From Cenococcum geophilum (Eukaryota): 64,000 nucleotides of DNA. Made by a program: the position numbers and the translations under genes. Positions within the stretch are counted from its first letter, which is position 1; each line of letters starts with the position of its first letter. The notes under the pieces were generated by a model. It saw only the letters and a program-made list of their open reading frames with translations, was not told the origin of the DNA and did not search any database. The DNA lies in the NCBI GenBank assembly GCA_050273025.1, contig CP158635.1, forward strand, positions 11,780,001 through 11,844,000, given 5' to 3'. This document shows, piece after piece, positions 39,934 to 62,900 of this stretch.

Positions 39934-40041
39934 AATAAGCAATAATATTAACCAAATTAATTAGACGGATATTATACCTCTAGTAAATAACTTAAAGATA
40001 TTTAAAATCTTTAAGGACGAAAATAGAGAGGAGGGAAATGG

Positions 40042-40438
40042 TATTATGGACGCTTTAAGTATAATATTATAATTACTTAGAGAAGAGTTAAAAGAAGCTA
40101 GTTAGTTAATTTAGGTATAGTCTAAGATAAAGCCAATAGAACTATATAATAAGGAATAGTAACTAAGGTTATATAATATAATCTATAATAGAGTAAATAG
40201 AGTATATGTATATTATATATAAGAAGGATTTTATAGAAATACGGTTATGTATTTAAGGACCCTTAGTCCCTACCTAGATAGTTCCTTTCTTATAGTAATT
40301 CTTAGAATATAATTAAAGTTAATCTATTAGGCAACCACTCCACCAATTATTATTACGTTATTAACTTTAATTTATATCACCTATATACCTAGCCTATTAA
40401 CGAGCCTATTGTAGTTCTTGTTATAAGGTTCCGTTATA
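40042..40438 (+). repeat. 3' LTR of gypsy A
   Basis: Follows PPT; homologous to 59956-60375. Confidence 0.9.
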
Positions 40439-40440
40439 TA

Positions 40441-41050
40441 TAAAAAGTAAGCTCCTTAGCGCGGTAGAAAAGGTATATTAATATAAAACGTTCTAGCTGC
40501 CGTTAATTTTAATATAAACTTTATATACGTTCTAGCTAGATAGGAAGGTACCGCTTATAACTATAAAGTTATTAATTTAGTAAAGAAGAAAGGCTTTAAA
40601 GCTCTATAAGGTTAATATTATCTTACTAATACTAGTTATTTAAATACCTTTATAACGTTAGTACTATACTAAGGCGTTTAATATTATCTTTATAAATAAG
40701 CTTAGGTAAATATAAGGCCGTAGAATATAAAGGAGCTATTTAATCTACGTTATATAGGACTAAGAAATACTATTAAGCGTACCTTTAGAGTCTTTAAGAG
40801 ATAATTTTAATACTTTAAGGCGGTAAAATAGAACTTCCCTCTAGTAATATAGATTCTTTTAGTATATATATTAATAGCGGTATATAACTTCTTAAATATG
40901 CATAATCCGGATAATCTAGAGGACTATAGTATAGTAGAGGATAAGGAGGTTAATAAGGAGGACGCGTAGATAGTAGAGGAAAAGAGTAAGGTTGCTATAA
41001 ATTAAAAATAGGACGAAATTGCAAAGCTTATATAGAGAGGCTATTGTTAG
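40441..41050 (+). pseudogene. Harbinger DDE transposase (DDE_Tnp_4/HARBI1-like), C-terminal part
   Basis: WRGRKG..TQNVLAAVDFDMNFVYVLAGWEGTAHD..YYLADAGY..LVPYQGVRYHL..KELFNLRHAGLRNTIERTFGVFKRRF after RIP reversal. Confidence 0.9.
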
Positions 41051-41342: not shown

Positions 41343-42783
41343 TAATATCTTCCTTCTTCTTTATTTTTGCCAAAGTTCTATCTATTAGTCTCTTCCGTAA
41401 CGCCCCTAATATAATTAAAAAGGTTCTTACCGTTAATTTTATTTTAAAGGCTTCTAGAATAAGCACTTAATTATTAAGGTCTATATATAAGGGTACTTTT
41501 GGTCCCTTACTCGGCTACATCCCGGGAGCTCTCAGGGGCTGCCAAGGCTAGCCTTCGGCTAGGCCTTGGCTACCCCTTATAAGCTCCTCGGGCTTGCAGC
41601 CTCCTTCCTCCCCCATCGGTTCGTCTCTGTACTTAGGCTATTGCCTACCCTCATTACCATATCGTCCTCTTCCATCAACTCCCTATGTGACTCATGCTCG
41701 GCTTGCCTGCTCCCTACCGTACACCCTGGCAATACTGCCTTACACTATATTATTAAACTTATTAAGGAACTCTACTAAGGCCTTTTCTAGAGGTAGCTTT
41801 TAACTAAAAAGCTCTTACATAGCTCTAATCTCTTTTAATATTAGCTCTATAGTCTCTCCTAGTAGGTTCTTTATCCGTTACCTATTTCTAGGTTACTAAC
41901 GCTTTATATCTAGTTTATTTAATATAGCAGCTCGTTTAGCAGCGCGTTTTCTTATAGCTAGTAAAGACTTTTAAGTAGGCGTTAATGAAGGCGTATAATA
42001 AAGGCTTAGGCCTACTAAGGACGACGATTATTAACTAGAAGGTGTAGTAGAGCGATTATTTAAGGAAATATCACTAGCTAATAAAGCTGACTGACGCTGT
42101 TTTATAAAAGATTAAGGTTTATCCTTATTAGCTACCTTATCGCCTTCCTTATTATAAGACTTATCCTCCTCGCTCCTGCCGTCCTATATAGTAGCAGCGC
42201 TTTCCTCCTCTATTAGCGTAGGATTAATTGGCGGCCCATTCTCCATTTAATTAAGAGCTTTATTAACTATAAGAGTATAGTTACCCGTTGTAACTACGCC
42301 TTAAAATAGCTTATTAACCTACTTTAGGAAAGGCGGCGGAGCGTCTTAAAACTTCGCGGCGTTAGGATTGGCTTTAAAATATCTATCTATAACATCTTTA
42401 GAGGCAACTGGTATACCTTTATTATTGTCCTACCCCTAGCTAGATTAATTATAGAGCTCCTTCTACGCCTTCTAATCCCTTTTTTAACTATTATGCTTAC
42501 TTTTAAGCTGCCGTATAGTAATTAAATATCGAGTCTTTGCCTATACGGCGTCTAGAGCTATTTACTAGCCTTCTTTCTTATACAAGCTATTTGCGCGGAG
42601 CCCTTTCCAAACAGCCTCTACTAGGCCTTTAATCATAGCTTCTTCTATTTCATAAGTCCAGCTAATACGCTGTTTCTTTATAGTTACTTGGCGAGCCGTG
42701 GGCTGTATATAAAGGGGCGGAGGGCGCGAGGAACATAGTATATGCGCATTAGTGGCAGAAGTAGGGGTGGTAGTTATTAACAA
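41343..42783 (-). pseudogene. Harbinger Myb/SANT-like DNA-binding protein, interrupted by a solo LTR
   Basis: KQRISWTYEMEEAMIEGLVEAV.KGLRADSSYKKEGW..QLKSKHD..K.DWKAWKEL..S.WGWD (ORF 42565..42783 and continuation). Confidence 0.8.
41486..41744 (+). mobile_element. Solo LTR of family F
   Basis: 259 bp, homologous to 55806-56063 and 58291-58548; TSD CTATA at 41481-85 and 41745-49. Confidence 0.95.
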
Positions 42784-44974
42784 TATAGTAATAAGACACC
42801 GAAATAAGGAGCTGGTAGTAGAGGTTCGGTAGTAGGTACGTTTTAGCAGAGGATTAATTAATGTGGGCAGAAGACGTCGCTAATTTTAAGCCTCATCTAA
42901 GGCCTTTTTAGAACGATCAACCGAACAGTCGGCTTCATTTCAGATTGAGTACGACTACCAGATTAAGCGCCACTAATTATCTACTAATTGACGCCGGCGA
43001 AAGCACAGATCAACGTCAGATTGAAAAAGCTCCAGATTGCAACCGAACACGCCCTAAGCTAGCGACTGCCAGTGGTTTAGGTTACTCGATGGTGAATATT
43101 TTTTTGGTCTTGGATTTGCTAGCAATTTTTCCTCGAGACTGCGTTCTATAGTTAATGCTGGGATAAAGAATCCCATAGGGTATGCCTTGTGGTGTACGTA
43201 TAGCACTATCGCTATTCGATGGTTCTTTGACACGGGTTGTCTAGTGAATGTAATTCGACCGCTTTGGATGATCGGATAATGGAAGCTTGCCCCCATCTTT
43301 GTGCCGCCGAGATAGCAGAAGGACTCTTTACCACTAGTCCATATATTCGGCGGTCTATCTGTATAAGTCCAAGTCGTTACACATGGCCATGTCGATCACT
43401 AGTTTGGTCCATTCCTTCGGCCCGTCAAACAGTTTTGCGCCACGGAAACGCTTTTAGTGGAGTGTGAAAGGAGCGGAGGAAAAGACCAAGGTCGGATGCG
43501 ATACGCATGGCTTTTGCTTCCCTGGTATGGGCTTGGTGATGCTTTGTCCACTTGACTGATGAGCACTCCGCGGCTAGAGAAGAAGTGACTGACGCCGTTT
43601 CCCTCGCATTGGATGTACTCCAGAAAGTGCACGATACACAAGAATGGAGAGGAGTGGAGTGAGTGCTTCGATTGTATCTGGTGGCCTGAGTTCGGCGACC
43701 TGAGCTAGCCTGGAAGGTCTAGACTGCAGTCTCAATTGGGCCCTGGCTCACCGATGTTAGCTTAAATCATGTCATTATGCAAGGCCCTAGGTATGCTGGA
43801 GTCTCTTTCTGTGTAATAATTTATGATCAGAACTTGAAAGGAGCTGGCGAGTTGCAGTTGCGGAATGCAGAAAAATTAGGGATGTGTTTAAGATTTCAAG
43901 ACATTTCCTATGAGAGCACCACGATGAGCCGAGAGACTTATGAAATGTACAAGCGAAGAGGTTACTGTAATAGGCAAGCTCTCACGAGAGGACCGCCATC
44001 AGCTTACAGTATGAGAGCCATTAGTTTATCCCAACATTGACGCGCGCCGTGTGGTGGAGCTGAAATGGAGCGAACGGTTCAATGAAAGATAATCTTATCA
44101 ATCCCGGTATTCTAGACCGAGGGGTTGGATGTGGCTTTGGACTCAGCTAGACAAGGATTAGAAATTGCATGGAACGGGGCGTGAAACAAACAAACTTCGT
44201 TCTCGCGTTTCACCGCCCCTAGATTGAAGCGAGATACAAAATCGGCAGGTGGCTGGTTGGGAGTGGATGGTAGGTAAGAATGAATAAGGCTGGCTAGAGC
44301 GGCACAGTGGGCTGATAATTGATTCATTGCATTGCAGGGTACTGCAGCATTTTCGTGGTGGCTCAGCGCATTACTCTTTGCCACGTTCTGTCGACAGCTC
44401 TAGCCACGCCGCCATCAGTTTTTCCAGAGTTGCGCAAGTGTCAATGCAACGAAGCCCCGTTCAGCTGCCGCGTACGTTCCAAGAGAAGCTAGAAAGATGA
44501 AAAATAGAAAAGTATGGGCTAGCTCCAGCGGCGCAGGGCGATGATGTCGCAGCGGTGCCTCTGCCCTGAATAATCCCTCACTTGACGCCACGTAAGCTAC
44601 TTGACCGCGGTTTGCCAACGAAGCTTGGTTGAGCTTAGAATGACTTATTGGGCAGCTAAGCAGGCATCCTCAAAGCTTGGGTGGCGCGGCAAGAGCTTGG
44701 AGAGCTTGGAGAAGGCCGAGCTTACCCCAATCAGGGATTTATTCGCCATGTGGGGCTGTGTTGGCTCGCATTGATGCGATCGGGCAGGGCTCCCTTGCAA
44801 AACGTGCATCACTAGTGGCTGTATTTGTGAACACACATTGGCTACGTTGTTGGTGGGGTTTGCGGGTTCAGGGCCTGCTGAGACGAAGTTGCAGGCAGGT
44901 GCGTTGCAGGCAGGATTTCCTGAAGGGCTGAGGACCGAGGGGGGCCGCAAGTAGATAAGGGGCGCTTCACTCGC

Positions 44975-45168
44975 TTTAAACCTGCTTTCTGACTCCACCT
45001 CCACATCAACAACCTCCAACTCATCAACAAACAACAACTTCTTCTTCGAGCCAGCCCTCAATCACTCTACAAGTAAGCTACTCATAAACCATTGACACAA
45101 TCGTACCAGGCACTGATTCAAAGGCCAGACAACTACCTCACGACCTCAAATCACTCACTTCATTCAAC
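44975..45168 (+). promoter_or_regulatory. Core promoter and 5' UTR with a 56-nt intron (45073-45128) of the CAAX-peptide gene
   Basis: TTTAAA at 44975, C/A-rich leader, GTAAGC donor 45073, ACTGAT branch-like ~45112, CAG acceptor 45126-28, TCAAC-ATG start context. Confidence 0.6.
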
Positions 45169-45285
45169 ATGCCTGCCAGCGCTGCTTCTTCCATTACCTC
45201 CATCGTCAAGCCTAAACCCATCAAGTGCGGCGAGTCCTGTGACTGCTGCGGCTGTGACGAGTCCTGCTGGTGCGTCGTCATGTAA
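45169..45285 (+). CDS. 38-aa Cys-rich CAAX-terminated peptide (a-factor-like lipopeptide pheromone precursor or prenylated metallothionein-like): MPASAASSITSIVKPKPIKCGESCDCCGCDESCWCVVM
   Basis: Intact ATG..TAA, good Kozak context, strongly C/T-ending codons, C-terminal CVVM, AATAAA at 45439-45444, lies in non-RIPped DNA. Confidence 0.8.
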   Translation: MPASAASSITSIVKPKPIKCGESCDCCGCDESCWCVVM

Positions 45286-47256
45286 GGAAATTGAAAGAGA
45301 TACCCGACTTGCGAAGGTTCATCATCGGCGGGCTATTCTATTGGCGGTGGAATACATGGTGGGATACCTGGCGGAACTTGGGTTATGGAGACACTGTCTA
45401 CTTAATCAAATCACCAATTGAGATATACCACCTCTACCAATAAACCCTTCTTTGGAGAACCCTATTTCAAATAATTGCGTCTTCATTTACGAGGTGTGAC
45501 TCAATTGTGACTTCAAAACTTGATGGCCAACATGTCTGACATTACGTCAATATGCCAAGCATAGTAGGCTATCTAATTATCTGCCAAGTGCTTCTTATCG
45601 AAAACCTCCGCTTCCAAGTCGTAATATGAGAGTACCCTAACGGTACCAAATGATCGCAGCAATCGGCCAACTGGTGTCTGTAACTTAGATAGGCTCCTAC
45701 CAGTACAACAAACCAGAAAATAGGCCTTTCTCTTCGCACAGGTTCGCGAAAAGCCGCGGGTGAAGACAGGTGTCAGAGAATCATGTTGACACATTGGTTA
45801 AGACATTATCATTCAATCAACTTCTAAGACTTTTGTTTGAACATTACAAGATTGATTACTTAGTGTTTGCTTCTCTTAACGCTGTTAGCATGTTTTGAAG
45901 CTCAAGATGGCTGGGCGCTTAACAGTGACATATCCGAGCTTCCTCCGAGTCACTTTCTTCGCCATAAAGCTTAATACCATCTTTCCGCAAATAGGCTTAA
46001 AATCAGCTCTTTCTCTCATATTTTCATGTTTTAAGGCTGAAATTACAAAGAAAAAAGAAGGAAAAAAAAGGGTGTGGCTTTTTAGGCACTCTGCCTTTTT
46101 ATACCGTGCAGCTAGGGAGCAAATTGGCAGTCCTCGTCCAGACTCTCCTCAACTACCTTTCAAAACCGCAAGAATGCTCCAACTACCAACCCGACCTCGC
46201 TAGTGTATCCGGAGTCTATGGGCAAGGTGCTGTCTTTGTTTGACTGACTAAATCCGTTGCAGCTCTTTGCCATGACGAATTCGGCGTATTGGAAGAAAAG
46301 AAACTCTACCCTGCGCATTGCTACCAAAGACCATATCGGGAATTGCTGAAACCCTCATGGTATTCCTTATCTATTTCTTGCCGGATATACTTCTATTTGG
46401 ACGTGACCGCGCGCTTCTTTGGCTCGCTAGCGCTAGCTGTCACCGAAAAGATAGTCACAGGTGGAGTGCTAAAAACTACCAGAGCTAGGAGAAACCGGTG
46501 ATCATTTGGAGGTTTCCTGGGGTTTCTATAATAATGGGCTGATATGTGCTTGGCAGTGATATGTGGTAGTTGACGGAGTGATGGACTTGCAGTTTTGCCC
46601 CTTGTCTGGCAAGTTTTGATCAAGCCATCGCTTTTAGTGTAGTCTTGCCGACTCCTATAATGCCTATTCTTTTCAAAAACTATCGAGTGGCAATGAACGG
46701 AGATGTGAATTAGTAAGTGACCTATGCACCGCTAGTCTGAGTTTCGGCGTTGAGGCAGCTGGGTTATTCTTTTAGAGACTTACGTTAGATTTGTGCAGAT
46801 ATTGGTCAGATGGCCTGCTTAAATGTACCTCGACTTAATTAGCACGCTCATGGCACGTATGGTTACTGAAATGCTGAAGATATCTTCCACGAATGCTCTC
46901 TACAAACTCAATTGGTGTCGTTTCCCCGGCCAGGATCCAGACAGTAACTCTTGGCAGTAACTTTGCTGTCCGAATCTTCTGCCAAGTTTCATTCTGCCAG
47001 TGCAAAATTAGTGGCTTAGAGCTTATTTTTTAGAGTTGTAGCTTAATTTAGCACGGTCTACCCCTAGAGGTACCTCCTCTATGCCTTGATATCTGTTGAA
47101 CGGACAATAAGGATTAGGACCCCGTCTATTAAAGAGGGCTCTAGAAGCTCTCTATATACATTAGGTAGGTCCAGGCAACTGAGACAAAATAGGTAATGAG
47201 ACGTTCGATGAGACGTTTAGTCATAAGTTAAGAGACAACTAAGACAAAGTACGTAA

Positions 47257-47788
47257 GGAAGTGTTCGGTTCGGGGTTCAGAAGCGATCTGGAGCTCCAAT
47301 CTGATCTGGAGGCGGGTGTTCGGTGTATCTGGCGACTTTTCAATCTGAAGCTCCTCCAGATCGGCAAGCGCGTCAAATTCGCACGCCATACCGTATATAG
47401 TAGTTGAACTGAAGCTCTTGGCGTCAGATCAATAAGGAGCCCTCAGTTTCGGTTCCAGATTCTAGATTGAATCTGAAGCTCTGCTCGTGCATGCGCCCAA
47501 TCGTCCACCCTACCCAGTATGCCCCCACCACCCCTCCCACCGACGATATTGCTGCTGCAGTTGCAGGCCCTATGCGACGTCTGGGTGAGTGGTGATTAAT
47601 GTGCAGAGACTTCGCTAATTCTAATTTTCATCTGAGGCTTTCTAGAGCGCTCAACCGAACACTCGGCTTCAGATCAGATCGAGTACGACTACCAGATCAA
47701 GCGCCGCTAAATATGTACTAGTTGACGCCGGTGAAAGCACGGAGCAACCTCAGATTGAAAAAACCTCAGATTGCAACCGAACACTCCC
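47257..47788. mobile_element. Tourist-like Harbinger MITE (532 bp) nested in the MULE
   Basis: 14-bp TIRs GG(A/G)AGTGTTCGGTT, TAA on both sides (47254-56, 47789-91); last ~195 bp homologous to 42858-43054. Confidence 0.92.
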
Positions 47789-47899
47789 TAAATATGATCT
47801 GGGTCGACAATATCCCGGCGCCTTTACGTCTTTGTGTCTACATCTGTCTCTACGCCTCTCTACCTAACCTCCCATAAGACGTGCAAAGAAACGCACAAG

Positions 47900-48255
47900 G
47901 AGACACTGGCAGAGATAGGGCAGAGACACGGACAGAGACACGGGCAGAGCCACGAGCAGAGCCACGAATAGAGGGAGGAGTAAAGAGAGAAGTAAAGAGA
48001 AGTAAAGAGAGAAATAAAACGGGCAGTCGAGATAGGAAAGTGGGTCGGTGGGGGTGAGTCTAGATAAACAATGCGCAGTTAATCTACAGGGTAAATTAAG
48101 GCTTAGCTTTAATATTCCCTTTCTAGACACCCCTTTCTGCCTCTACGCCTCGCACCTCTGCTCGTAGTTCTACTCGTGGCTCTACTCGTGGCTCTGCTCG
48201 TGGCTCTGCTCGTGGCTCTGCTCGTGGCTCTGCTCGTGGCTCTACTGCCCGTATC
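47900..48255. repeat. 12-bp tandem repeats in inverted arrangement (AGAGCCACGAGC / GCTCGTGGCTCT)
   Basis: Purine-rich 12-mers at ~47900-48015 and ~7 complementary copies at 48156-48245. Confidence 0.85.
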
Positions 48256-51200
48256 TCGCCCGTTGCTCACTTATATAAAAAGAGAGACACGTAGAAAGAG
48301 ACGCGTAAGGGAAAACGCGTAAAGCATAAGAAAGAGTAAAAATAGATACCGGGAAAGCTAAAATAGGCCCCGAGTAGTGTCTTGGCATCTTTTACCTGAC
48401 CAAAAGATTTGGACAGTAAAGTTACTGCCAAGAGTTACTCTCCGGATCCTGTCCGTCGTTTCCCCATGCCACAATCATAAAGGTCTTCTATCACGGTAAA
48501 GTTCTTTGAAACCGGCTATCGATATACCTGATTTTAAGCTCATTCATATTTAGTCGCCACGCTATACAAGCGACCAGTATGCCGCATAAATCTGCATTGA
48601 TTCTTAACTCAACTATGTAGATTGCGTAGTTAAGCAGAAGTTTCAATTTCTGTCAATAGTACCGCCACTACAAAGCTTGAGCTTCCCGCCAAGCTGCCCG
48701 AGTTTTCGTACCACCCAGTATTTCCTCGTCTTTAACATCCTAGATTTATATAGAAAAACTCTCAAAATAACAGTTGGAATTCCGTCTTTAATAACCAACT
48801 TTAACAATACATGCTGCAAAGTTATTTCGCTCCGGTGTCAGCCTGTCGATCCAGGTCGGGTTTTGGGACAACTTTCCCTACCACCGTCTTACTACTATCT
48901 CGGTCAGCGACTCGGTCAGCGGCTCGGTCACCAAGATAGTCTACTGTCCCTTCTTCTTATGCATACATAGAGGCTACAGAGCCACATTCAATAGACAGAG
49001 TTCTTATTCTTTTCTTATAATCGGTGCACGGACTACCAATTAACAGTTATAAGCCTGGGTGACTTGCCATATTATACCTATTGATTTAATTAATCGAACC
49101 TCTTATTAAATACTTTATTCGTCTTTGCAAGCACCTCTTAATATAACTTCTTAACCTACTCAAGCTATTACTATAATGGTAATATTATTGAGCTAAGCTA
49201 ATGTGAGGTGAGGATGTGGATAGGGAGTCCAATGATAGAACAATAGGTATATTGTATAGACAGAGACGAATCCTTAAAGGAAAAGGAGGAGTCTGTGTGC
49301 GAGGTAGGAAGGGTTTTCCCTAGGCACGTGCTCTGCACGTGCCTTACGGGCGAGTTACCCCTGGGTTGCCCTAGGGTCGCCCGTATCTTGCGGCTATATA
49401 ACTATCTACTTAGGTTTTACCTAACAATGCCCCCTCCTTTAAAAAGGGTCGTCCCCAATCCTTTATATACTTAAGCCTTAATAAAACCCTATAAAAAACC
49501 TTAGTAAGGAAAAAATTTAGAGGGAAAAAAGCGTTTTAATTTTGCGTATGGAGAGATAGGTAGTACATATACGCGGCGCGAAGATGTTAAGGAACTTTAA
49601 CCGGCGGTTAAAGTTATCTAATTAGTTAGATTTACCTTACTAAGACTCCCCCGCATTTAACTAAGCTAGTAGTAATTTTATATACCCGGTATAGAAAATC
49701 CTAATTAGTTTATTTAATAGGTAGAGCTAATAGAGCTTAATACTATTACCTAAATTTGGTAGACTAGAAGTATTCTAAAAGCTTACTTATATAGGTAGGT
49801 TGCTAGTACCTTATAGGTTAGTTATAGGTTATTTACATATAGCTAGATTTATAGACGGTAAGGCTATATACCTATTAAATCCGCCGCTAACCCTGCTTTA
49901 GCCTTATACTATACCGGCGTAGCGCTATATATACTTCGCGGGTAGGTTATAGGTTACTTATATATAGCTAGGTTTAGGACGGTAAGGCTATATACCTATT
50001 AAATCCGCTACTAGCCTATACTTTAGCCTTACGCGTTATCTATATAGTATATATATAGAATAGTATAAGTTATTAGTATAGGTTGTTACTAGTAGGTTAC
50101 TAGTAGGTTATAAACCCTAGTTAAATAGACCTCGGTTATAAATAGGCCTATTCTCTAATATATAAATAATCTGCTTAGCTAGTATAGAGTAATAGACTAG
50201 GTCTAGAAAGGGTGCTTTTTAAATTAAGCTTTATTGCTAGTATATACTATAGCCTTACTAGTATCGCCGAGTTATATTAGAGTGTAGCTTATATAGGATA
50301 TTAATAAATTAAAACTTTACCCTATATATACGCCGCAGTTCTTATAGCAATTATTACTTATTTTTTAATCCCTTAGGATATCCTCTACTTCGCTTTAATA
50401 TAGGTTATATTTTAATAGTGGCGCTTACTTTTCGCCTACGCTTTAGCTATAAGGCTAGGGTATTCCGCTTATAGTACTTATCTAATAGTTATTAACAATT
50501 CTTAAGTTCTATCTTATATTTCTATTTATTATACTAATTTAGCCATCCTAGCTATTTAATAAGGTACTGTGGTTATCTAGTATAATCCTAGTAGGCGATA
50601 ATTGCTTCTACTTCCTAGCTACCTTCCTTAAGCTCTTTTACTACTAGGGGTTAAAACCTAGGGCGTAACCTATAAGGCTCTAGTAGGGAGATATAAAAGA
50701 CTAGGTAAAGCTATACTATAGTAAGTAGGAGCTCTAGCTTATATACTTACTACCCTATACACTCTAAGATCTAAAACGGTCCTATAAACTTATAGTTAAG
50801 CTTTTTATAGGGACATTTTATATAGATATTCTTAGAGGAGAGCAGGACTTATTTACCAACGGCGAAGTGCTTGGCTAGGTAGTAACAATTATAGTATTTT
50901 ACCTAAAGCTTTTAGGCGTGCATTATTAACGCCGCCGCTACCTTATATATAAGGCGCAGGCGTTATAAATACGTCTCTATAAGTTAGATATTTATTAACT
51001 TAAACCCCTCCCTACCTTATTAGGCGTCTTAAACGCTGTCTAGAACTCTATTTAGGATGTTTAGTAGCTAGCTATAGGCGAGCTTAATAGGGGAACGCTT
51101 TATTATAGTATAAACCTTAAAGTTATAGGTAAAGGCTGCTTCTTTAAGTAGGGAGGCCTAATTAGACTATTCCTAGTTTATAAGTATATATAGGTATACC

Positions 51201-54200
51201 TTAAGCTTCTAGTTCTAACGCTCCGTCTAACTATCTATCTATAGGTAGAATGCGGTACTAAGTTTATATTAAACGCGGAGATAGTAGTATATAGTGCTTT
51301 AGTACTCGCTTATAAATATACTACCCCTATTAGAGATAATATTATCTAGAGGCCCTATTTATATAAAGACTCTAAATAAGAGTTCTGCGAGTTATATAGC
51401 ATTAATTATCTTACGCACTAGATAATAGCGCACTAGCTTTATAAAATGGTCTATAAGAATAAGGACGGAGTTATACCCTACGCTATTAGGAGTCTTAAAC
51501 TCTAGGAAATCTATAATAAAGTTAAGTAAATAATGCCGCTAGGCTTAAGTAGGGGCCTAAAGAGGCTATAGCTTACTATAGGGTTTATAATGGCGCGATT
51601 TAGAGCGTTAGTAGGTATTATAATTATCTAGGTATTTATAGAGGTCCTAGGTAAGGCTATTCTAAGTATACTTTTACGCGATTACCTTAAAAGTATGGTT
51701 AAAACTATAGTGGCCGCCTATAGGATCGTCATAATTCCGCTTAAGAATCTCCTATTATAGTAGTATATAATTTAGCACCTAGACCTTATTATTTTGCCTT
51801 AAGAGTCCCTAATTATTAAGGGTATAGTCCTTATTACTAGTAGGAACTTATTCCTAGGTTAACTAATTATATATAGAGCGTATAAAGGCGTCCCTTTTTA
51901 TACTCTATAAATAAAATTAACTAGTAACTTAGGGGGGTATTCTATAAACGCCGTTTCGGCTAAAGCAGTTACTACTACCTCTTACTATAGCACGAGACTC
52001 TACGTAAAGTTAGTGCTAGTAAAGTAATATATAATATATAGGTAACTTGCCGGGTTATTATAGGGGATTATAGCCTAGGCTAATAGGTCTTCCCTAGGGT
52101 TAAGCGCTATTAGGCTAGTTAAAGTAGTCTTAAAGAGAATAGTAGAATACTCTAGTCCGCCGGCGTTAAGTTTATAAGGGTTACTTATATACTATACGCA
52201 TACTACTTACTAATATAGTATAGTAATACTAGGGCCGCCCACAAGGCCTATAACCCGCAAATTTTGCTATAATATAGGTAGTATAGTATTAAGGAGTATC
52301 CTTTTACTACTATCTTTAAAGCTTTTGGTATAATCTAGGCGCTAAAATAGTATATTAGCGGAATTTACTTTACCTAGCTTATATTTAATTTTAAAATTAA
52401 ACTTAGCTAGTTTCTTAGTATACTAGGCCTAGTAAGTAGATAAGCTCTTAGTGGTTATAAAGTACCTAAGATTATTATAATCGCAGAGTACGCGCGTTAC
52501 ATACGCGGCGTATTTAAGGTAATAGCGCCACGTCTTAAAGCATTATACTATAGCGAGTAGTTCTTTATTATACGTATTATACTATACTTCTAGGCTAGTA
52601 AGCTTCTAACTATAATAAGTAATTAGGTGCTAGTAGAGTTAATCTTCTTACCCTAAAGGCTAGAGAAGTATACCGCTATAGGCATAATTAGAAGCGTTAG
52701 TAATTACTATTAGGGGTAAATTAGGGTTAAAGTAGCGAAGTAGAGGAGCCTATATAAATATAGCGCGTAGCTTACGGAACGCCTACTGCGCGTTATTAGG
52801 CTAGGACTAAGGTTAATGCCATTTAGTAGGCCCTTTTAACTTATACTTTTTCTTCTTCTCCCTATCTAACGTTAGGTTATAATATACCTATGCAAAATAT
52901 ATATATAGGGGGTATACGGTATCTAAGTAGTTTTAGATAAATTACTTATAGAAGTTAGTAAAGCTAAAGAAGACCTAGATATCCTTATAGGGCTTAGGCT
53001 TAGGCTATTCCTTAATAGCTTTTACGCGGTTAGGGTCTATTATAATACCCCTAGGGGTAATAATAAAGCCTAGGAACTTAACGTTCTTAATATAAAAAAT
53101 ATATTTTAATAGTTTGGCGTATAGGCCCTAAGTATAGAGCTATTATAGTACGTACTTAACGTACTTAACGTACTTATCCTTATTATTTAAGTAGATAAGA
53201 ATATTATCTAGGTAAACTATATAGATAGTATTTACTAGGGTTTCTAGAGCTTTATAAATATAGCTCTAAAAAGTTATAGGGGCGTTAGTAAGACTAAAGG
53301 GTATTACTAGGTACTTAAAGTAACTATAGCGTGTCTTAAATACGGTTTTCTATTTATCTCCCTTTTTGATATAAATCCTATAGTACGTATTATAAAGATC
53401 CAGCTTTATAAATATCTTTGCATAGCTAAGCCTATTAAAGAGTTCGCTAACTAGCAGTAAAGGGTACAGATTTTTAATTATAATCTTATTTAGACGTCTA
53501 TAGTTAACGTATAGCCGTATTATACCGTCTGCTTTTAGCATAAAGAGGATAGGCGCTTTAGTAGGCGACTTGCTAGGCCTAATCTAGCCCTTTTTAAGAG
53601 CACTGTCTAGGTACTCTTATAAGATCTATAACTCTTTCTATCAGAGGCTATAGAGGGGTATTTATAGTAGTATTTTACCTTCTTCTAAGTCAATTATATG
53701 GTTATACTTAGGGTTCTATAATAGTATACTTGCTAGCTTATTAAAGAAGATATTAATTTCCTCCTTATATATATCTAATAGGCTAGGGGCTATAGAGGTT
53801 AAAGCAACTATTATATAATAGTGTGCTTCCAGAAGCCAGTAAAGAGAAGGGTGCGGCTAATATACGTTTTATAGGTATACTTGTACTAAGAGTGTATATA
53901 GCTCTACTATAGTATACTTAATAGTTTTAGGGTTTTAATTACCTCCCCCTTATATATAGGTAATCTACGCTAGCACTGGAGGGTCTCTATAGGTACTTGC
54001 TACTAGTAACGGCAGGTCCTTTACTATATTTAGAACCGGTATCTCTATATTTAGAGGGTCTGTATAGGTACTTACTACCAGTAATAATAGGTCCTTTATT
54101 ATATTTATAACTAGCATAAAGAAGGGGTCTTCTAGCTATAGCGAATAGACTATTTCGCTAGCCTTAATGTTTACTAGAAGAGTATTAAGGGTAACTATTT

Positions 54201-55805
54201 AGAGGCGTCTAGGGTCTAAAGTACCTAAATAAACTATCTAAAACGGAAGCTAATTAATAGATCTACTTCCGCAAGCTAATCCTATTTAAAAACTATATTA
54301 TAACTATTAAATAAGCCGCCCTAAAAGGTCTGCGGGCTAATAGTACGAGGGGTACCCTAGAAGTCACTAGTGGTAACTATTAAATTATAAGCGTCCTAGA
54401 TTATTATCTAGTTACTATTAAGGAAATATATAATAAGTTTATATAAATATAGCGCGTAGTATGTAGGTAGGTTAAACCTATAGACGATATCTTAATTAAT
54501 AAGGTTAATTTAGCACCTATTATTATATAAAGTATATAGGCGGACTTTACCCTAGGGCGTATTTATTACGACGTATACTATAATACGTTTCTTCTCTCCC
54601 TTTATATTAGGCCCTAGTTATAGTTAAAAGAGATACGTTACTAGGGCTTTAGGTTTTCCAAAGCCTAAGCTAACTTCTCTTTATTAGCCTACTTCTAGTA
54701 TTCCTTATAGTAGCCGCCTCGGTCCTTTAACTTACCTACGTAGTACTAGCGCCTGGGGGGTCCCCTAAGCCATCTAACTTTTAGGTAATCTCCCTAGGAG
54801 TTTACTTAGAAAAGCGTTGCCCTTTTTAGGTTTTATTCCCTAAGCCTAACTCTATAAAGCCTATACTGCGACCGCGTTTTATACGCAATAATTTGCCGCT
54901 ACTACTTACGCGATCTTCTATAAGCTTTATGGTGTTAAGCAATTACTCTACACAGCGGATTTCGTTAAAGAGGTCTTTAGCGGTTCTTACCTATTGGGCG
55001 AAGTTCTAGCGGAAGAGCTTTACTTATAGGTGGACTAGGAAATATAAGAACTAAAAGTCTACCTATTGTTTAGGATTAATAAAAGGGGTATATAAGAAGA
55101 GGTCCTTTAAGCTACGTATATAGGCTAGGAAGACGTTAAACCTCTAGTTCTCCTTTATAACAGCCGTATAGTATATTATAGTGTTATTAAAGCGTCTTAC
55201 TATAGGGTTCCTAATCTAGTCTTAGACTATAGTCTTAAACTTATCCTATAGTAAAGGACCCTTATCCTTAGTGCCTAACCGGCAATAAACTAGTTAAGTA
55301 ATTGTCTTCTCTTTTATAAGACCTTTAATGGCCTAGCACGTGCGTCGCTTACAGTTATAGTTAGCGTTATTAACCTTACTAAATTAGTTCTTAATTGCGG
55401 CAATCCACCGGTTAAAATACTGTTAAGTAGTACCGCTAATATTAGGTAGTGACTTCTTAACTAGGGTATTAAGATTTAATCGACGTATACGTTCGCTATA
55501 TAACTTATACTCTTTACTAAAGAGGTAACGGAAGGGCTTTATTAAATTAATAATGCTCTATAAGTTGGCTATTTTCTTAGCTAGCTTATCTAGCTCCTTT
55601 ATATTAGCGGTATTAGGTAGGACGCTAGTAACCTTACTAAGCTCCTATTAAGCCTAGGTATATAAATTAAACTAGTCTTTAGCGTTCGTAGATGTCTAAT
55701 CATTTTAAGATTTAGAAAATAGCTTAGATGCTGCTAGTATACTTCTAGCGGTTTCGTTTACACTAGATCCTAAGGCGTTCTGCGGTTATATCGCCAGCGT
55801 ATTAC

Positions 55806-58548
55806 TGTAAGGGTTATTTTGGCCCTTACTCGGCTGCATCGCCTAGGGGCTCTTAGGGGTCGCCAAGGCTAGCCTTTGGCTAGCCCTTGGCACCTCCTTA
55901 TAAGCACCTCGGGCTTGCAGCCCTTCCCTCCTCATCGGTTCGTCTCTGTACCTAGGCTATTGCCTACCCTTATTACTATATCGTCCTCTTCCATCGACTC
56001 CCTATGTGACTCATGCTTGGCTTGCCTGCTCCCTACCGTACACCCTGGCAATACTGCCTTACATTCGAACCGATCCTACACCCTTGCGGGTGGTAGCCTG
56101 CAGCAAGCTGAGGGCTGCGCCCTTGAGCAATTTCACGATCCTCTATTTTTACCTAGGACGATCGCGTTTACTGCGACACAGCAGGTACACCAGCAGACGC
56201 CTGGCAGATCGCATCCGCATATAAAGGTTCATTGGAATACGGATCGAGTCCTCTACCTTACCTAGGACGATCGCGTATGCTGTAGAGCAGCTACACTAGC
56301 AGACGCCTGGTAGATCGCATCCGCATATTACGGTTGGTAGATATAGATTAGGAGAAAAAAGGAATTCTTAATCCTTTCCCTTTTACCTAGGCCGATTAGT
56401 TCACTGTAATAAGTAGGTATACTAGCAGATATCTGGGATCGCGTCTGCTAATAACGGTTATGGAATACGGATTAGAGAAGGGAGACCAGATCGGACGCGA
56501 TCACCTCCTAAGGAGACTGGTAACGCTCTCTAGGCCAACCGCGGTTTACTCGCGATAGAGGTCCCACTAACAGAGATTGGAAGGTTGAACGTCCTTAAAA
56601 GAGATGCAAAGAGCTACGGCTCTTAGATCGTTCGCGATCGCTTAAGGGCTACGGCCCGACCCGGAGACTCTCCGGCTGTCAGCCTGAGGGCTGCCGAGAC
56701 TAAACTGTAGGCGGTTGTCTCTTAGAGCTACGGCTTACCTCGAGCTTCGGCTTAAAGATCCTACGCGATTAAGCTTGTAAATACTTAATAGGTTAACCAC
56801 GGTTTACTCGCAACAGAGGTCCTACTAATAGAGGTTGGAAGGTTGAACGTCCTTAAAGAGATGCAGCTACCCTGGAGGCTATCTGATTGCTATTTAATGG
56901 CTATCCGAAGAACTGATGGCTAGTTTTTAAAGCTACAGCTACTACCATGCGCTTCCAGATTAAATGTAATTAAGGGCTACTGCCTAATTAGCCATAGAGC
57001 TGCCGAGACTAAATCGAAAGCGATTGTCTCTTAGAGCTACGGCTTGTCTTAGGGCTACTGCCTAATTAGCTAAAGGGCTGCCGAGACTAAACCGTAGGCG
57101 GTTGTTTTTCATTAAGCTACGGCTTACCTTAAGAGCTTCGGCTCAGAGATCCTATGTGATCTTATAAGCTACTGCTTGCTTTAAGAGCTACTGCTCTTAG
57201 ATCGTTCGCGATCGCTTAAGGGCTACGGCCACCCGGAGACTCCGGATACCAGCCATGGGGCTGCCGAGACTTAATCGTACGCGATTGTCTCTTCTAAAGT
57301 TATAAGCTCAGCTTATGAGATCCTATTGCGGTTAAATGCCATCCTTAAGCTATAGCTACAGCTTTAAGAGCTACGGCTCATTGAGATCGTAGGTGGTCTC
57401 GTAAGCTACTGCTTGCCTTAAGAGCTACGGCTCGTCCTTGAGCTACGGCTTAAAGATCGTACGTGATTATCTTTCGGCAAGGCTTTGGTTGCTCTAAGAG
57501 CTCTAGCTTGTATTAAGAGCTACAGCTTGCCTAAGAGAATGGCAGCAGCTTAAAGATTGTACGCGATCATCTTTTGGCAAGGCTTTGGTTGCTCTAAGAG
57601 CTCCAGCTTGCATTAAGAGCTACAGCTTGCCTAAGAGAATGGCAGCAGCTTAAAGATCGTACGCGATTATCTCTCTGTAAGGTTTTGGTCGCTCCAAGAG
57701 CTCCAGCTTGTATTAAGAGCTATAGCTTGCCCAAGAGAATGGCAGCAGCTTAAAGATCCTACGCGATCTCTTAGCAAAGCTTTAGTTGCTCTAAGAGCTC
57801 CAGCTTGCTTTAAAAGCTCATAAGACCCTATTACGGTTAAATACCGATATCTCTCCGAACCCCTTCCGGGACGAGCCCTCTATAATCTCCCGCTACCGCA
57901 AGGTAATGGAGGGGGCTGACCGCAAGAAGGGGGGGGGGGTAATGTAAGGGATATTCTTGCGATCAAGCCGGCTCCAAGTGGAGACTATCTGGCTGTTAGC
58001 CATAGAGCTGTCGAGACTTAATCGCAGGCGATTGTCTCTTCAAGACTGATCGTATACGATCAAGTCTTACCCCACTAGCAGACGCTCTTTTCCTACCTAA
58101 AATAGGCCCTTTTTCCCACTGGGTTTTGGCTATAGGTTAAGGTTTTTATCAAGGCTGCTTAGCTAGTCCTTTTCCCCTATTTCTTTATTCCCCTGTATAA
58201 GCAAGGCTTCTGCACTGCTTACCTTTCTATATATAGAATTAATCTATTGGGATACGGGCTGGGGGCCAGCCCTAACCAAGGGGGGGGCAATGTAAGGGTT
58301 ATTTTAGCCCTTACTCGGCTGCATCGCCTAGGGGCTCTTAGGGGTCGCTAAGGCTAGCCTTTAGCTAGCCCTTGGCACCTCCTTATAAGCACCTCGGGCT
58401 TATAGCCCTTCCCTCCTTATTGGTTCGTCTCTGTACCTAGGCTATTACCTACCCTTATTACTATATTGTCCTCTTCTATTAACTCCCTATATAACTTATA
58501 CTCGGCTTACCTACTCCTTACTATATACCCTAGCAATACTGCCTTATA
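55806..58548 (+). mobile_element. Non-autonomous, non-coding LTR retroelement F (TRIM/LARD-like, 2.74 kb)
   Basis: 258-bp LTRs 55806-56063 and 58291-58548, TSD ATTAC (55801-05, 58549-53), PPT aagggggggg before the 3' LTR, repetitive interior with no gag/pol. Confidence 0.93.
56064..58290 (+). ncRNA. Putative highly structured RNA interior of element F (hairpin arrays)
   Basis: Many RRGC-T(A/T)CG-GCYY, GATCG-NNNN-CGATC and GAGAC..AATCG-NNNN-CGATT.GTCTC hairpins inside ~97-120 bp higher-order repeats. Confidence 0.5.
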
Positions 58549-59164
58549 ATTACCGTTAGGTATAGGCGTCGGTTTTCTTTTTAGAGGCATTATAGAAAAA
58601 TTAAACCGGCTATCCTCTTAAGGGGATTAGTAAGGATTTAAATGTAAGGTAAAAATATAGATAGGGAGTCTAATAATAGAACAATAGGTATATTGTATAG
58701 ACAGAGACAAATCCTTAAGGGAAAAGGAGGAGTCTGTATATAAGGTAGGAAGGGTTTTTCCTAAGTATATATAGAGCACGTACCTTATAGGCAAGTTACC
58801 CCTAAGTTGCCCTAGGGTCGCCTATACCTTACGGCTATATAATTATTTACTTAGGTTTTACCTAATAGCTAATTAGGACGAATAGATTAGCCTTATTAGG
58901 CTTTAAGCCTAATTAGAAGACGTATAGAAATATATTAACCCCTTAACTAAAAAGAATAAGTTATTCTAATTAATTAAACTAATCTTTTCTAGGCCTTAAG
59001 ATATAAAGCTAGGAATAACCTTATATATAGCTCTCTTTAAGAATAAGAAGGACAAGCTTTAAATTCTCTATAAGAGGTATAAGATAGTAAAGAAGGAATA
59101 TAAGAAGTAGAAGGCAGCTTTAACCTCCCTATAAAGCTATATTACTAGTATAGTAGTTAGAAAC

Positions 59165-59955
59165 TATTATAGGACACCCTCGTAACACCTTACACACGTC
59201 TACCTATTTCTACTAACTTAGCAATTAAAAACTAATCGCGAAATAGCAATTTAATGGCAATCTAATGGCAATCTAACGGCAATTTACGGCATTCTACTAT
59301 ATTTTACTAAGTTCTACTAAATTCTACTAAGTTCTGCTATGACTATAACCTAAACCCTATTCTACCCTATATACGTATTAATTAAGTAACTAAGTTAATA
59401 ATATATACCCTTTCTTCTTGTTTTTCTACCTTCTTTCCTTATATAACGTCTTAACCTCCTTATACAGTTTATATATATAGCTTAATAATATCTACCTTGC
59501 TATATATTATCGCCGCTTATACTTACTCCGTAACACTATATTATGTTAACTTTATATACCATCTCCAAAATACAGAACAGCCCTAAAGCCCCTATAACGG
59601 CCGCTGGTATTATATTTACACTCTAAGAATAACTAGTAGAAATATAAAAGTCTTTTATAAACGCCCTTATATAAAACTAAGCTACTCTAAATTAATAATA
59701 AGCTAAATAAGAAGCATAATACTAGCAATTAATTAAGGACCTCTAAGAAGAAATCCTTAAGACTAAACACTATCTCTAGAGATAAATACGCGGAACGCGA
59801 GCCCTAAACCTATATCAACTGTCTACCTTAAACCGACTACTATACTAAAACAATCTAAATAACTACTAAATCCCCTAGTATTTACTAGTAAATAATAAAA
59901 ACTCTAATTATTTTTAAGCTAGCTTAAAAATAAGCTAACTTATAACGCTAACTGT
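59165..59955 (+). mobile_element. LTR retrotransposon G, 5' LTR (59165-59535) and gag start, interrupted by A'
   Basis: RIPped TGTTACGG...CCGTAACA termini, internal 11-bp and 10-bp tandem repeats, followed by a gag-like coiled-coil ORF. Confidence 0.65.
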
Positions 59956-62900
59956 TATTATAGACGCTTTAAGTATAATATTATAACTACTTAGAGAAGA
60001 GTTAGAAGAAGCTAGTTAGTTAATTTAGGCACGGTCTAGGATGGAGCCGATAGAGCTATATAATAAGGAATAGTAACTAAGGTTATATAACGTTGTACGT
60101 AGTATACGCAGTGTACGAAGGGAATGTACGTATAATACGTATAACACGTACTTTACGTACAAAGGGGATTTCTTAGGAGTACGGTTGTGTATTTAAAGGA
60201 CCACAGTCCCTACCTAAATAGTTCTCTCCTTTGTAGTAAATCTTAGAATATAATTAGAGTTAATCTATTAGGCAACTACTCCACTAGTTATTATTACGTT
60301 ATTAACTTCTTATTTACCTATATACCTAGCCTATTAATAAATCCACCGTAGTTCCTACTACAAGGCTTTATTATATATTTACTACTAAGGTTATAGTATT
60401 AATAAAGTCAAATAATATACCACTAAAAGTACCAGCTATAACGCTATTAACGGCGGCAACTACTTTAAGGTTAGGTAACGACACTAATATAGTAGATACT
60501 AACTTATAGTAACCTATAACGGTCGGACAGCTATAAGAGATAGTCGACCAGTTAATAGAAAATAATGTGATGTTAGAAAATAGGATTAACGGGATAGGAG
60601 TAGCAAAGATTAAGCTACTATTAATCGAAAGGTACTTAGGGGAAAGATTAAAACTTAAAGGATTCCTTACGTAAATGCACTTTAAGGTTATATAAGAAGG
60701 GGCAAAGCTACTAATACCTATAAATTAAATAGCATATGCGGGACTATTCCTATTAGGAAGGGCACTTAAATAGTTTAAACTTTACCTTATAGAAATATAA
60801 GCGAATGGTATAATAACCACTAACTAAGACGTATGGTTTATATTTATAAGGGTTTACGGAACAACTTATATAGATATTTAGAGACCTAAAGGCGGTAACT
60901 ATAGCGAAAAGAAAACTCTAAGACATTATATAATAAACCTTAGTAATTAAGTATATAATGCGGTTCTAAACGTTAGTAATATAAGTAGAGTAGAATAATA
61001 AGGCGCTTATAGTATAGTATAAGTAAGGACTTAAGGCTAAAGTCTAGGATGTAATTATCCTAATAGAAGATACGGACACCCTAAGGGAATTAATAAATTA
61101 AGTAATTAAGATTAACAATTAGATCTACTAAAGGGAATAGGCCAAGAGAGGCTAGGATAGAGTTTTATAGTTATATAAGGCGTAGAGTACGTAATAACTA
61201 AAGCTAAGTTAGAAACTATAGTATAGCGTAGAGCCGATAGACCTAAGTAGTATTAAAGAAAATAAGAAATAAAATAAACGACTATAGAAACCCAGAGAAC
61301 AAGGATTAAGTAATTAAAGGTTTAAGAAGTAGAGGCTAAACTAGGGATCTTAGTAGTAGAAGATATTTAGGCGGACTTTATAGCAAGAAAAATGGTTTAA
61401 AGAGGGAGCTTATATAAATTACGGAAAATAGGGTTATTATATTAGAGACTGTAGAAGTAGGTAGAGTTACTATATAGTAAAAGGCATAAGACTAGCAGAC
61501 AATATACACGTATAAAGGGATAATAATATACTGCAAGGAACAAAAGAATGTTTAATTAAAAGTTTTGTGTTTTATTATAATAATATATACCAAATTTATA
61601 AGAACGCTAAGTATAGTATAAGCTATTAGCTATAAGAGCTAGCACCTATAAGATATAGAGGAACTAACGAACTAGTTTATAGATCGGATATTAAGGATGA
61701 TAAATTTAATATAGGCGAAATATTTTATAATAATAAGGCAATATAGGCCGCTTACTAGGAGCGAGTAGACCTCGGAAATGTTATACTAGAGGCAGAGGAT
61801 AATTCCACTATAAAATAGGGAATATTAGTAAGGATTAAGACCCCACTAGACATAATATCTATTGCTTTATAAGATATAAGAGAAGTAAGATAGTAAACCA
61901 CTTTAGTATTTAATAAAGGCAAAAGGCCAAAAGCTTAAGATTCTTAAAATAAGATATAAGATAACCAAGATTCTTAAGACAAGATAAAAACACTAAGTAA
62001 GCCTAGTTAGACTAAGGCTAGAGCAAAGCTTAAGATAGAAGCAAGCTTAGGATTAAGAATCCTATAGGGCTAAGAATTCGGAGTATAAATAAGGACACCT
62101 ATAAATAAGAAGTAAGAGGCTTTCTTATAGATTAGAGAATCTATAGCATAAACAGCAATTAGACTAGAAGATAGATATATAAACCTAGAAGATTTACTAG
62201 GAGAATATAGTGTTTAGCCTAAAGATTAAAATATTAATACTAAGATTAAGAAGTAGGAAGACTTTAAAGATCTAAGCGCGAGACGCAAACTAAAAGAAAC
62301 TATAAAAGAATTTAGACGAAGAATTATCGCATAGTAAGAACAGAAACTAGATAAGAGATCTAGTATATTAGGACGTATAAGGGATAAAGCGCTAGTATAA
62401 AGAATTACTAATAGGCCTAGGGCAGGCATATTAAGAGCTAAGTAGCTTACTAAACTGGAAGACGAAGAGGATTTAGGGATCCCTACTAGGTTCGAAGAAC
62501 GATATATAAAAGGCTATTATAACGCAGTAATAAGAAGATACTTCCTTACGGATAAGCCGTATATACTCTAATAGCTATACTAAAAGTGGTATAGGCAGCG
62601 ACATAACGACGAGTAGGAAGATTTCTATATATAGTTAGATGAACGAGTTATCTAAAACCACCTAATTATAGAGAAGGCCATAACGTATATTAAAGGAGCC
62701 TTAATTATAACATTAAAGGATCTAGAGGAATAATTAGAGGACTAGAGAAGCAAGAGACGTATCTTAGTACCTATAAACAAAGTTATAACGTTTAGATTAG
62801 TACAATAAAGGTTTAAACTTAAGGATAAAGATAAGTTAAGAGTTAACCTAAAGCACCTAGTATACTATACGCTATTATAGATTGTATACGTGAATAATAT

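Follow-up and report, generated by a model that had tools for sequence, protein, structure and literature searches.

Why should a stretch of fungal DNA that encodes no protein be packed with short hairpins capped by the same few loop letters? The question is raised by a 64,000-nt stretch of the Cenococcum geophilum genome (GenBank assembly GCA_050273025.1, contig CP158635.1, positions 11,780,001 to 11,844,000 of the forward strand; hereafter the window), in which the original prediction, made from the letters alone, had taken 56064-58290 for a non-coding, parasitic long terminal repeat (LTR) retroelement with an RNA selected for structure. We found that 55806-58548 is a complete copy, altered by repeat-induced point mutation (RIP), of a multicopy non-coding, non-autonomous LTR retrotransposon. 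Its interior carries a variable, minisatellite-like array of short stem-loops, mostly capped by U-N-C-G or N-A-N-G loops and all oriented with the transcript. The hairpin-array design is real and unusual, and its purpose, by analogy with viral RNAs, is perhaps the hijacking of a helper's coat protein.

How non-autonomous LTR elements win the machinery of their helpers is poorly known, common as such elements are, and to our knowledge almost nothing is known of the packaging signals of fungal Ty3/Ty1-type elements. With its fixed-letter loops on interchangeable stems, the family provides a candidate packaging signal that is clean and repetitive and can be mutated with ease. It also shows how a gene-less mobile element can persist under RIP, the destroyer of coding elements, and if the hairpins are functionless, it is still a useful case of structure-prone repeat growth inside a retroelement.

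A Complete Non-Coding LTR Retrotransposon

The element and its parts are as follows, in window coordinates.

55801..55805, strand. : 5′ target-site duplication (TSD) ATTAC, read directly and script-checked, with the same five letters beyond the 3′ LTR
55806..56063, + strand: 5′ LTR, 258 bp, TGTAAGGG...CCTTACA; direct repeat D1, 91% identity to 58291-58546, ends checked
55934..55942, + strand: ATCGGTTCG within the LTR, complementary at every base to 56066-56074; candidate for the self-primer and for the beginning of R
56064..56076, + strand: putative primer-binding region TTCGAACCGATCC adjoining the 5′ LTR, a 13-nt conserved block
56064..56460, + strand: conserved leader with two to three repeats of ~106-126 nt (repeats D16-D18), colinear in 20 aligned copies
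56489..57447, + strand: array of stem-loop modules H1-H4, from repeat, hairpin, and alignment analyses
57448..57818, + strand: tandem repeat, 100 bp x 3.7 (Tandem Repeats Finder score 567, 87% matches; D2, D5)
57823..58290, + strand: conserved 3′ region, over which 11 copies align at 84-97% identity for at least 400 nt
58278..58290, + strand: polypurine tract (PPT) AAGGGGGGGGCAA abutting the 3′ LTR, letters checked and kept in aligned copies
58291..58548, + strand: 3′ LTR ending CCTTATA, more RIP-mutated than the 5′ LTR (direct repeat and LTR comparison)
58549..58553, strand. : 3′ TSD ATTAC, letters checked

The interval singled out originally, 56064-58290, is exactly the interior between the two LTRs of the element 55806-58548. 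The LTR termini are of the TG...CA type, the 3′ copy ending in CCTTATA after RIP, and an alignment of the two LTRs over 256 bases shows 25 transitions and no transversion between them. Contigs from DNA sequencing runs preserve the empty-site form: they join 55800 to 58549, skipping 2748 bases and sharing five letters (three contigs in X1 and one in X5). LTRs, TSD, and PPT are thus all present, as expected of the parasitic LTR retroelement that had been proposed.

The element is also non-coding, as the original prediction had it. Its longest open frame in the window is 130 aa and lies mostly within an LTR; across 16 copies the longest stop-free frames range from 66 to 162 aa, their positions are not conserved, and the longest fall mainly in LTRs. 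Eight frames from the window and other copies were searched against Pfam, and none reached the cut-off (seven had no match and one scored far below it). With no long frames and no Pfam signal, the interior is not a decayed coding repeat. Rfam gave no match at E ≤ 1 in 55000-59500, and no tRNA- or 5S-like sequence was seen in that interval (ARAGORN, 0 genes; no Rfam tRNA or 5S match). An autonomous element must supply Gag, reverse transcriptase, and integrase for this non-coding family. No helper gag or pol associated with the family LTR was found in the window or in 94 kb of flanks of other family loci, and these flanks are also without the hairpin motifs.

A Mobile Multicopy Family Marked by RIP

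We gathered family copies from metagenome contigs, which were scanned once with a pattern based on the longest hairpin. The scan retrieved 43 loci, 15 of which have two LTRs or are near-complete, and the copies range in size from about 1.7 to 2.7 kb (1735-2741 bp). Matching 5-bp duplications flank eight two-LTR copies, namely the window copy and seven metagenome copies (L003, L016, L020, L029, L032, L033, and L035), whose TSDs are GTTAT (twice), CTATA, TATAT, CTTAG, CCTAC, and GAAAG. In two DNA runs, 5799 and 3896 contigs match the element at an identity of at least 88%. These 43 loci, with TSD-flanked copies and an empty site, make up a mobile multicopy family.

All copies have a common plan, with a conserved leader, a conserved 3′ part of ~470 nt, and between them a middle in which the number and order of modules vary; the window copy carries an extra internal duplication (D12, D13). 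Differences between copies are mainly CpA→TpA and TpG→TpA, at rates of 0.35 and 0.31 compared with 0.08-0.15 elsewhere, and this dominance of CpA/TpG changes is the signature of RIP. In copies with both LTRs complete, the LTR pairs differ nearly only by transitions; LTR-pair identities for L010, L012, L018, L026, L035, L039, and L042 were set aside, one LTR of each being cut or differently bounded.

A second LTR subfamily (L012, L026, L035, L042) begins with TGTAAGGGATCTTTTGG and is shorter than the window-type LTR by approximately the first 54 nt of the latter; it shares its primer site and hairpin types with the window type. Two loci, L042 at 1-2467 and L009 at 202-1661, have the order interior-LTR-interior-LTR, that is, tandem elements with a common LTR. 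Repeats of the window at 24922-27441, 38296-40442, and 58867-61350 match flanks of metagenome loci. Because of these matches, the metagenome contigs are probably from the same fungi or close relatives of them, and the three repeats are probably common insertion neighbourhoods of the family.

An Array of Stem-Loops in One Orientation

Every hairpin named in the original prediction was found at its place, and the array is described by four modules.

56609-56624, + strand: AAGAGC-TACG-GCTCTT
56626-56639 and 57200-57213, + strand: GATCG-TTCG-CGATC
56646-56657, + strand: GGGC-TACG-GCCC
57113-57126, + strand: TAAGC-TACG-GCTTA
57133-57144, + strand: GAGC-TTCG-GCTC
56680 and 57250, + strand: CAGCC-TGAG/ATGG-GGCTG
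57012, 57273, and 58020, + strand: AATCG-AAAG/TACG/CAGG-CGATT
57090, + strand: AACCG-TAGG-CGGTT
56489..57447, + strand: module H1, RRGC-UNCG-GCYY
56489..57447, + strand: module H2, GATCG-UNCG-CGATC
56489..57447, + strand: module H3, CAGCC-NNAG-GGCTG
56489..57447, + strand: module H4, GAGAC..AAYCG-NANG-CGRTT.GTCTC

The interior holds 29 perfect hairpins (stem of at least 4 bp, 4-nt loop), compared with 10.7 ± 3.3 in 1000 dinucleotide shuffles (maximum 22), and 10 of the 29 have UNCG loops where 0.14 are expected (shuffle maximum 2). Among 26 other 2227-nt tiles of the window, 24 have no UNCG hairpin and 2 have one. The pattern GCTNCGGC matches 16 times in the window against an expectation of 4.6 ± 2.1, and 11 of the 16 matches lie in 56613-57449, all on the + strand. 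Its matches at 6442, 6508, 13563, and 22611 were considered as family remnants and rejected, the first two after a specific check.

In the window copy the array is itself partly duplicated, 56531-56599 recurring as 56789-56857 and 56609-56656 as 57183-57230. Each unit of the adjoining 100-bp repeat holds a single H2 hairpin along with two H1-like hairpins, whose loops are UCCA/UACA and whose end pair is G-U, and the number of these units differs among copies. Because the modules are paralogues that duplicate one another, fewer of the hairpins are independent than the shuffle test implies, and the counts show a design feature of the family and not hundreds of independent events.

Orientation is strongly one-sided across the family. 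Across 67,938 nt from family members, GC-UNCG-GC was counted 304 times in the sense and 0 times in the antisense orientation, CG-UNCG-CG occurs 75 times compared with 2, and UNCG loops closed by 2 bp occur 404 times compared with 83. By comparison, 93,996 nt of flanks contain seven matches to UNCG-hairpin motifs, mostly at interval edges. C(UUCG)G and C(UACG)G are extra-stable RNA tetraloops, and G-C closure of a UNCG loop is a less stable arrangement than C-G closure. The 404 sense loops are closed by C-G in 315 cases and by G-C in 82, the latter being of H2/H4 types.

The loop letters are constrained position by position. Among 485 H1-type hairpins (246 with UACG and 36 with UUCG), U occupies loop position 1 in 473, C or U stands at position 3 in 482, and all four bases occur at position 2, which is the UNCG pattern. 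In the N-A-N-G loop of H4, position 2 is A in 97 of 98 instances, even though the search pattern left this position free. At least two unrelated stem types, RRGC/GCYY and RATYG/CRATY, share UACG/UUCG loops in one orientation.

Stem Covariation and Its Relation to RIP

The original prediction held that stems covary while loops vary. We examined this first in H1, which was detected by its inner two pairs and loop only, leaving the outer pairs free to vary. The first pair outside this core (n=304) is A-U in 258 instances, G-C in 41, G-U in 2, and otherwise composed in 3; the second is G-C in 184, A-U in 65, G-U in 41, and A.C in 11. A composite H3+H4 module of 42 nt provided 98 instances, 79 of them distinct, with the H4 stems partly fixed by the search pattern. 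At H4 pair 26-35, where both letters were free in that pattern, we found U-A in 63 of 98 and C-G in 35 of 98, with 0 intermediates. The two columns are perfectly correlated (r2 = 1.0), yet when either is set against the 17 other variable columns, all four combinations occur with 15 of them, among which are columns between positions 26 and 35 and columns that vary by transversion.

Near-identical modules within one LTR subfamily differ only at pair 26-35 and at one bulge letter, and for this reason at least two separate compensatory switches, not many, are likely. The claim of covarying stems and varying loops therefore stands in the form of two clean switches (63/35/0 and 258/41/5) and of transversions confined largely to loops: the 42-nt module has 140 transversion cells in 12 unpaired columns compared with 14 cells in 30 stem columns, a density per column ~25 times higher in loops than in stems. 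Transversions are not a product of RIP.

In the same module, paired cells amount to 94.3%, compared with 25-50% when the partners were slid, and the covariation score of 0.162 exceeds the 0.119 of shuffles and was reached by 0 of 500. Pairs with change on both sides number 4 of 15, no more than in shuffles. RNAalifold gave a different and weaker fold for the first hairpin of the module than the fold read from the sequence; we retained the latter, which was the one tested by the partner-slide and shuffle control. On the leader, RNAalifold found a conserved fold with a covariation term of only -1.25 kcal/mol, in a test of low power, the differences between copies being mostly post-insertion RIP.

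Could RIP itself have produced these patterns? Hairpins and compensations would then be artefacts of symmetric C-to-T mutation in a gene or ordinary repeat. The window copy is indeed heavily RIP-mutated, as its LTR pair and the dominance of CpA-to-TpA changes attest, and the caveat raised at the outset, that covarying changes are transitions that RIP also makes, is correct in that every compensatory change is a transition. It also applies fully to the H3 closing pair, where an ancestral C.A mismatch became U-A by a CpA-context hit. It does not extend to the two clean switches. Both lie at CpC/GpG-type sites with a RIP-like rate of 0.08-0.15, compared with 0.31-0.35 at CpA/TpG, and independent hits in such low-rate contexts would leave more half-changed pairs: single RIP changes should exceed double ones, but half-changed pairs are 0 of 98 and 2 of 304. 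Moreover, less-mutated copies have as many UNCG hairpins or more (14 in L012, 9 each in L016 and L020), and the missing open reading frame (ORF) and Pfam signal do not suit a decayed gene. An origin in RIP or decay is refuted for the bulk of the hairpin signal, and as a full account we regard it as having next to no chance.

Transcription, Priming, and the Retrozyme Analogy

RNA data suggest a start of transcription inside the LTR. Stranded raw RNA depth rises from 11.7 in bin 55812-55917 to 76.4 in bin 55918-56023, and a contig set from RNA libraries shows the same step (1,499 to 20,206), while a DNA run is flat across it (133,536 to 112,947). In the interior, nearly all raw stranded reads have one orientation, with depths of 10.1 and 12.9 compared with 0.38 and 0.61 (bins 56554-56765). 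No read-start cluster was reported on the element in the low-depth RNA data. The element thus shows low-level sense transcription, probably starting within the LTR, and the stranded reads that the original prediction had suggested looking for are present at low depth.

The putative primer region adjoins the 5′ LTR on the side of the interior. Nine nucleotides, 56066-56074, are exactly complementary to 55934-55942, and of 5000 shuffles of the LTR only 23 contained a complement of at least 9 nt to the 16 nt that follow the LTR (p ~0.005). The ATCGGTTCG motif is preserved in both LTR subfamilies, and the primer region 56064-56076 is conserved in 16 of 16 full-length copies apart from RIP-type transitions, one copy having a two-letter swap. 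The usual complement of a tRNA 3′ end was not seen at 56064-56076, as judged without a host tRNA set. A probable RNA start inside the LTR together with the 9-nt complement suggests Tf1-like self-priming, rather than tRNA priming, as a candidate mechanism.

The original prediction had likened the element to retrozymes; its RNA would then be processed and circularized and would replicate or accumulate as a structured circle. A non-coding LTR element with a structured interior does have the general build of retrozymes (PMC4918200, PMC5680766). No hammerhead or other ribozyme was found at E ≤ 1 in the window element, however, and six less-mutated copies yielded no ribozyme, only two weak non-ribozyme matches far below thresholds; that no ribozyme core is present had itself been noted and is borne out. 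No raw RNA read, at the low depth available, supports a circle at any of the 15 joints listed, and the TSD is 5 bp. The analogy therefore fails in its specifics, and we consider a retrozyme-like life cycle extremely improbable.

Possible Function of the Array

We would put at about even the chance that the stem-loop array of this parasitic LTR element, with its candidate Tf1-like self-priming, acts in cis on the element's RNA, possibly as reiterated Gag-binding signals. The stem-loops would act on the sense RNA as reiterated protein-recognition hairpins, and their likeliest role would be that of extra binding or packaging sites, possibly also dimerization sites, for the Gag of a helper element. 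Unequal recombination or template switching would alter the size of the array, and the ORF-free element would be able to remain functional under RIP.

The analogy is with viral RNAs. Stem-loops that serve packaging and dimerization in retroviruses, and the capsid-binding hairpins dispersed in the RNA of ssRNA viruses, occur in multiple copies that raise the affinity for coat protein or Gag. The family resembles them in its conserved loop letters, varying stems, and multiple copies, but differs in having tens of tandem units in a non-coding parasite and a hypothetical binding partner. We infer a cis role of the hairpins on the RNA, and we infer with similar reserve that the RNA is selected for structure, be it for packaging, as a decoy, or for evasion of RNA interference.

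A stronger version, in which the array is a multimerized capsid (Gag) recognition signal and the parasite, by carrying tens of copies of the loop-specific hairpin that the helper's own Gag binds, out-competes the helper for packaging, is put forward tentatively and is unlikely as a complete statement. If true, nature would have in such an array its own version of the coat-protein hairpin arrays built by engineers and of the packaging signals dispersed in viral RNAs, and its hairpin-only, ORF-free design would allow a parasite to stay active in a genome that runs RIP.

A number of observations weigh against an RNA-level role, and several of them favour a neutral palindromic minisatellite, which is the main rival and a serious one, though less likely than not. 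The hairpin units would then be functionless, the element needing only its LTRs, primer site, and PPT; inverted repeats would stall polymerase or reverse transcriptase and expand by slippage or template switching, and arm complementarity would be kept without selection, by templated quasi-palindrome correction or by duplication of founder units.

The number and order of units are highly variable between copies, so that no fixed architecture is required, and part of the interior is a plain 100-bp tandem repeat. Paralogues and copies of common descent enter into all the counts; very few events, probably two or more, may lie behind the compensatory switches, and a few independent events among duplication-related instances would explain the counts. 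The pattern used to fetch the loci demanded one intact H4 stem and so inflated pairing in the H4 module. Ancestral mismatches are also tolerated in some slots, which carry them in most copies (of 98 instances, 22 have C.A at the closing pair of H3 and 16 have A.C at H4 pair 17-42). RNA reads are scarce: 428 matched, 401 of them only in part, and because 89% continue into unlike sequence, most come from relatives. The Gag or other binding partner is hypothetical, since neither a helper element nor a Gag was found in the window or the locus flanks.

Strand comparisons belong on the same side of the balance. The original prediction had pointed to many mismatches that are G-U on the sense strand, and in the window G-U-dependent hairpins do number 19 on the + strand compared with 13 on the - strand. 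The excess is not robust in the family, where the counts are 457 sense and 512 antisense (13 compared with 23 loci); in the central array they are 268 and 185 for 4-bp stems and 79 and 92 for stems of at least 5 bp. At the second H1 pair, the G-U excess of 41 over 11 is near the prediction from CpA context: A follows the C in about half of the instances, and for this reason RIP context predicts most of the bias.

Folding energies, which are thermodynamic predictions of the RNA fold, gave a similar result. In 120-nt windows the mean z-score is -0.63 on the + strand and -0.79 on the - strand, compared with +0.1 to +0.3 in controls. The densest 851 nt of the window fold 33 kcal/mol better as sense RNA (z -3.47 compared with -1.50), yet among eight other copies the sense strand is the more stable in only three. 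The suggested folding comparison thus yielded z-scores modestly below those of shuffles, with no consistent strand bias across copies in either G-U use or folding energy. There is no strand asymmetry beyond the loop letters.

Those loop letters are the first of four features that a functionless minisatellite does not readily explain. The loops are patterned, with U1 and C3 fixed and N2 free in H1 and with A2 and G4 fixed in H4, directly beside loop positions that vary by transversion. The same UACG/UUCG loops sit, in the same orientation, on the unrelated RRGC/GCYY and RATYG/CRATY stems. Transversions are far denser in loops than in stems, as given above, and no copy has lost the array, whether it belongs to a diverged LTR subfamily or comes from one or another of several metagenome sets.

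Constraint on DNA palindromes would yield the same data, and this too counts against placing the function in RNA. The units could form an array of inverted repeats for a dimeric DNA-binding protein, for example a fungal zinc-cluster factor reading CGG/CCG half-sites, and serve the integrated copy as an enhancer, as an insulator, or in chromatin signalling; a DNA-level precedent is the array of Su(Hw) sites in Drosophila gypsy. In keeping with this, the units are inverted repeats without strand bias in pairing quality, and some have the form CCG-N4-CGG (AACCG-TAGG-CGGTT) or CGG-N7-CCG (CCGGAGACTCTCCGG). At least six stem sequences occur, however, and their half-sites switch together (T-A to C-G), unlike a fixed half-site preference. 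The CGG-type arrangement is absent from the commoner AATCG/CGATT variant (63 of 98), and a symmetric dimer site does not explain conserved asymmetric loop letters. We therefore judge a DNA-level array to be very unlikely.

Relation to Known Non-Autonomous LTR Elements

Non-autonomous LTR elements are known, also in RIP-active ascomycetes, where large retrotransposon derivatives (LARDs) have been annotated. [quoted passage not shown] It differs in that its interior is an array of UNCG/NANG-capped stem-loops, not a degraded gag-pol. By the definitions in PMC13570524, TRIMs are below 1 kb and LARDs above 4 kb, leaving the gap of 1.5-4 kb unnamed, and by those limits copies of 1735-2741 bp fall into neither size class.

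Retrozymes (PMC4918200, PMC5680766) share with the family the plan of a non-autonomous, non-coding LTR element with structured RNA; the family differs in having LTRs without a hammerhead, a fungal rather than a plant host, a 5-bp TSD, and no sign of circular RNA at the joints listed. Cassandra, Helenus, and Ajax (PMC10886601) resemble the family in that they are small non-coding LTR elements, also found in fungi, with 5-bp TSDs and non-standard primer sites. These elements (TRIMp3) have LTRs derived from small RNAs, whereas the family LTR is without tRNA- or 5S-like sequence. In most Helenus families of fungi the primer site is complementary to a tRNA anticodon loop (PMC10886601); the candidate primer site here matches a motif of the family's own LTR.

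In this respect the family is comparable with the self-priming elements Tf1/Tj1 (PMC4600332): in the family, too, the sequence after the 5′ LTR is complementary to an LTR-internal stretch that is possibly the 5′ end of the transcript. The differences are that the complement here is 9 nt only, that the candidate transcript start is placed to within a bin, and that the element is non-coding. An LTR element with a UNCG-type hairpin array was not found described in the literature searched, the coverage of which excluded most subscription journals and Repbase.

Further Features of the Family and the Window

One further trace of the family lies in the window.

41486..41744, + strand: solo LTR of the same family between CTATA/CTATA (BLAST, 90% identity over 260 bases), 14 kb upstream of the element

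The conserved 3′ region of the element contains an internal polypurine run, AAGAAGGGGGGGGGGG, followed by the LTR-start-like TGTAAGGGAT (57925-57952), as well as a single H3+H4 module at 57997-58038 and, at 58042-58068, a bulged hairpin of 11 bp. The internal AAGAAGGGGGGGGGGG/TGTAAGGGAT pair lies ~350 nt upstream of the true PPT/LTR junction and is conserved in other copies; an earlier 3′ end, or recombination between subfamilies, may have left it behind.

Around the element the window is AT-rich (~30-35% G+C) and nearly without long frames, and its only coding remnants are two. A stop-free frame at 20709-21158 (- strand) matches the C-terminal end of Pfam DUF3435 (E 1.2e-6, passing the cut-off) and is a RIP-degraded remnant; we take this domain to belong to fungal tyrosine-recombinase mobile elements of the Crypton/Starship type. 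At 53353-53583 (- strand) lies a weak RVT_1 remnant (E 0.0028, below the cut-off), for which no connection with the LTR family was found. The interval 43000-49000 forms an island with a G+C content of 45-53%; with no frame longer than 138 aa and no Pfam match in the frames tested, it could be another non-coding or intron-rich feature.

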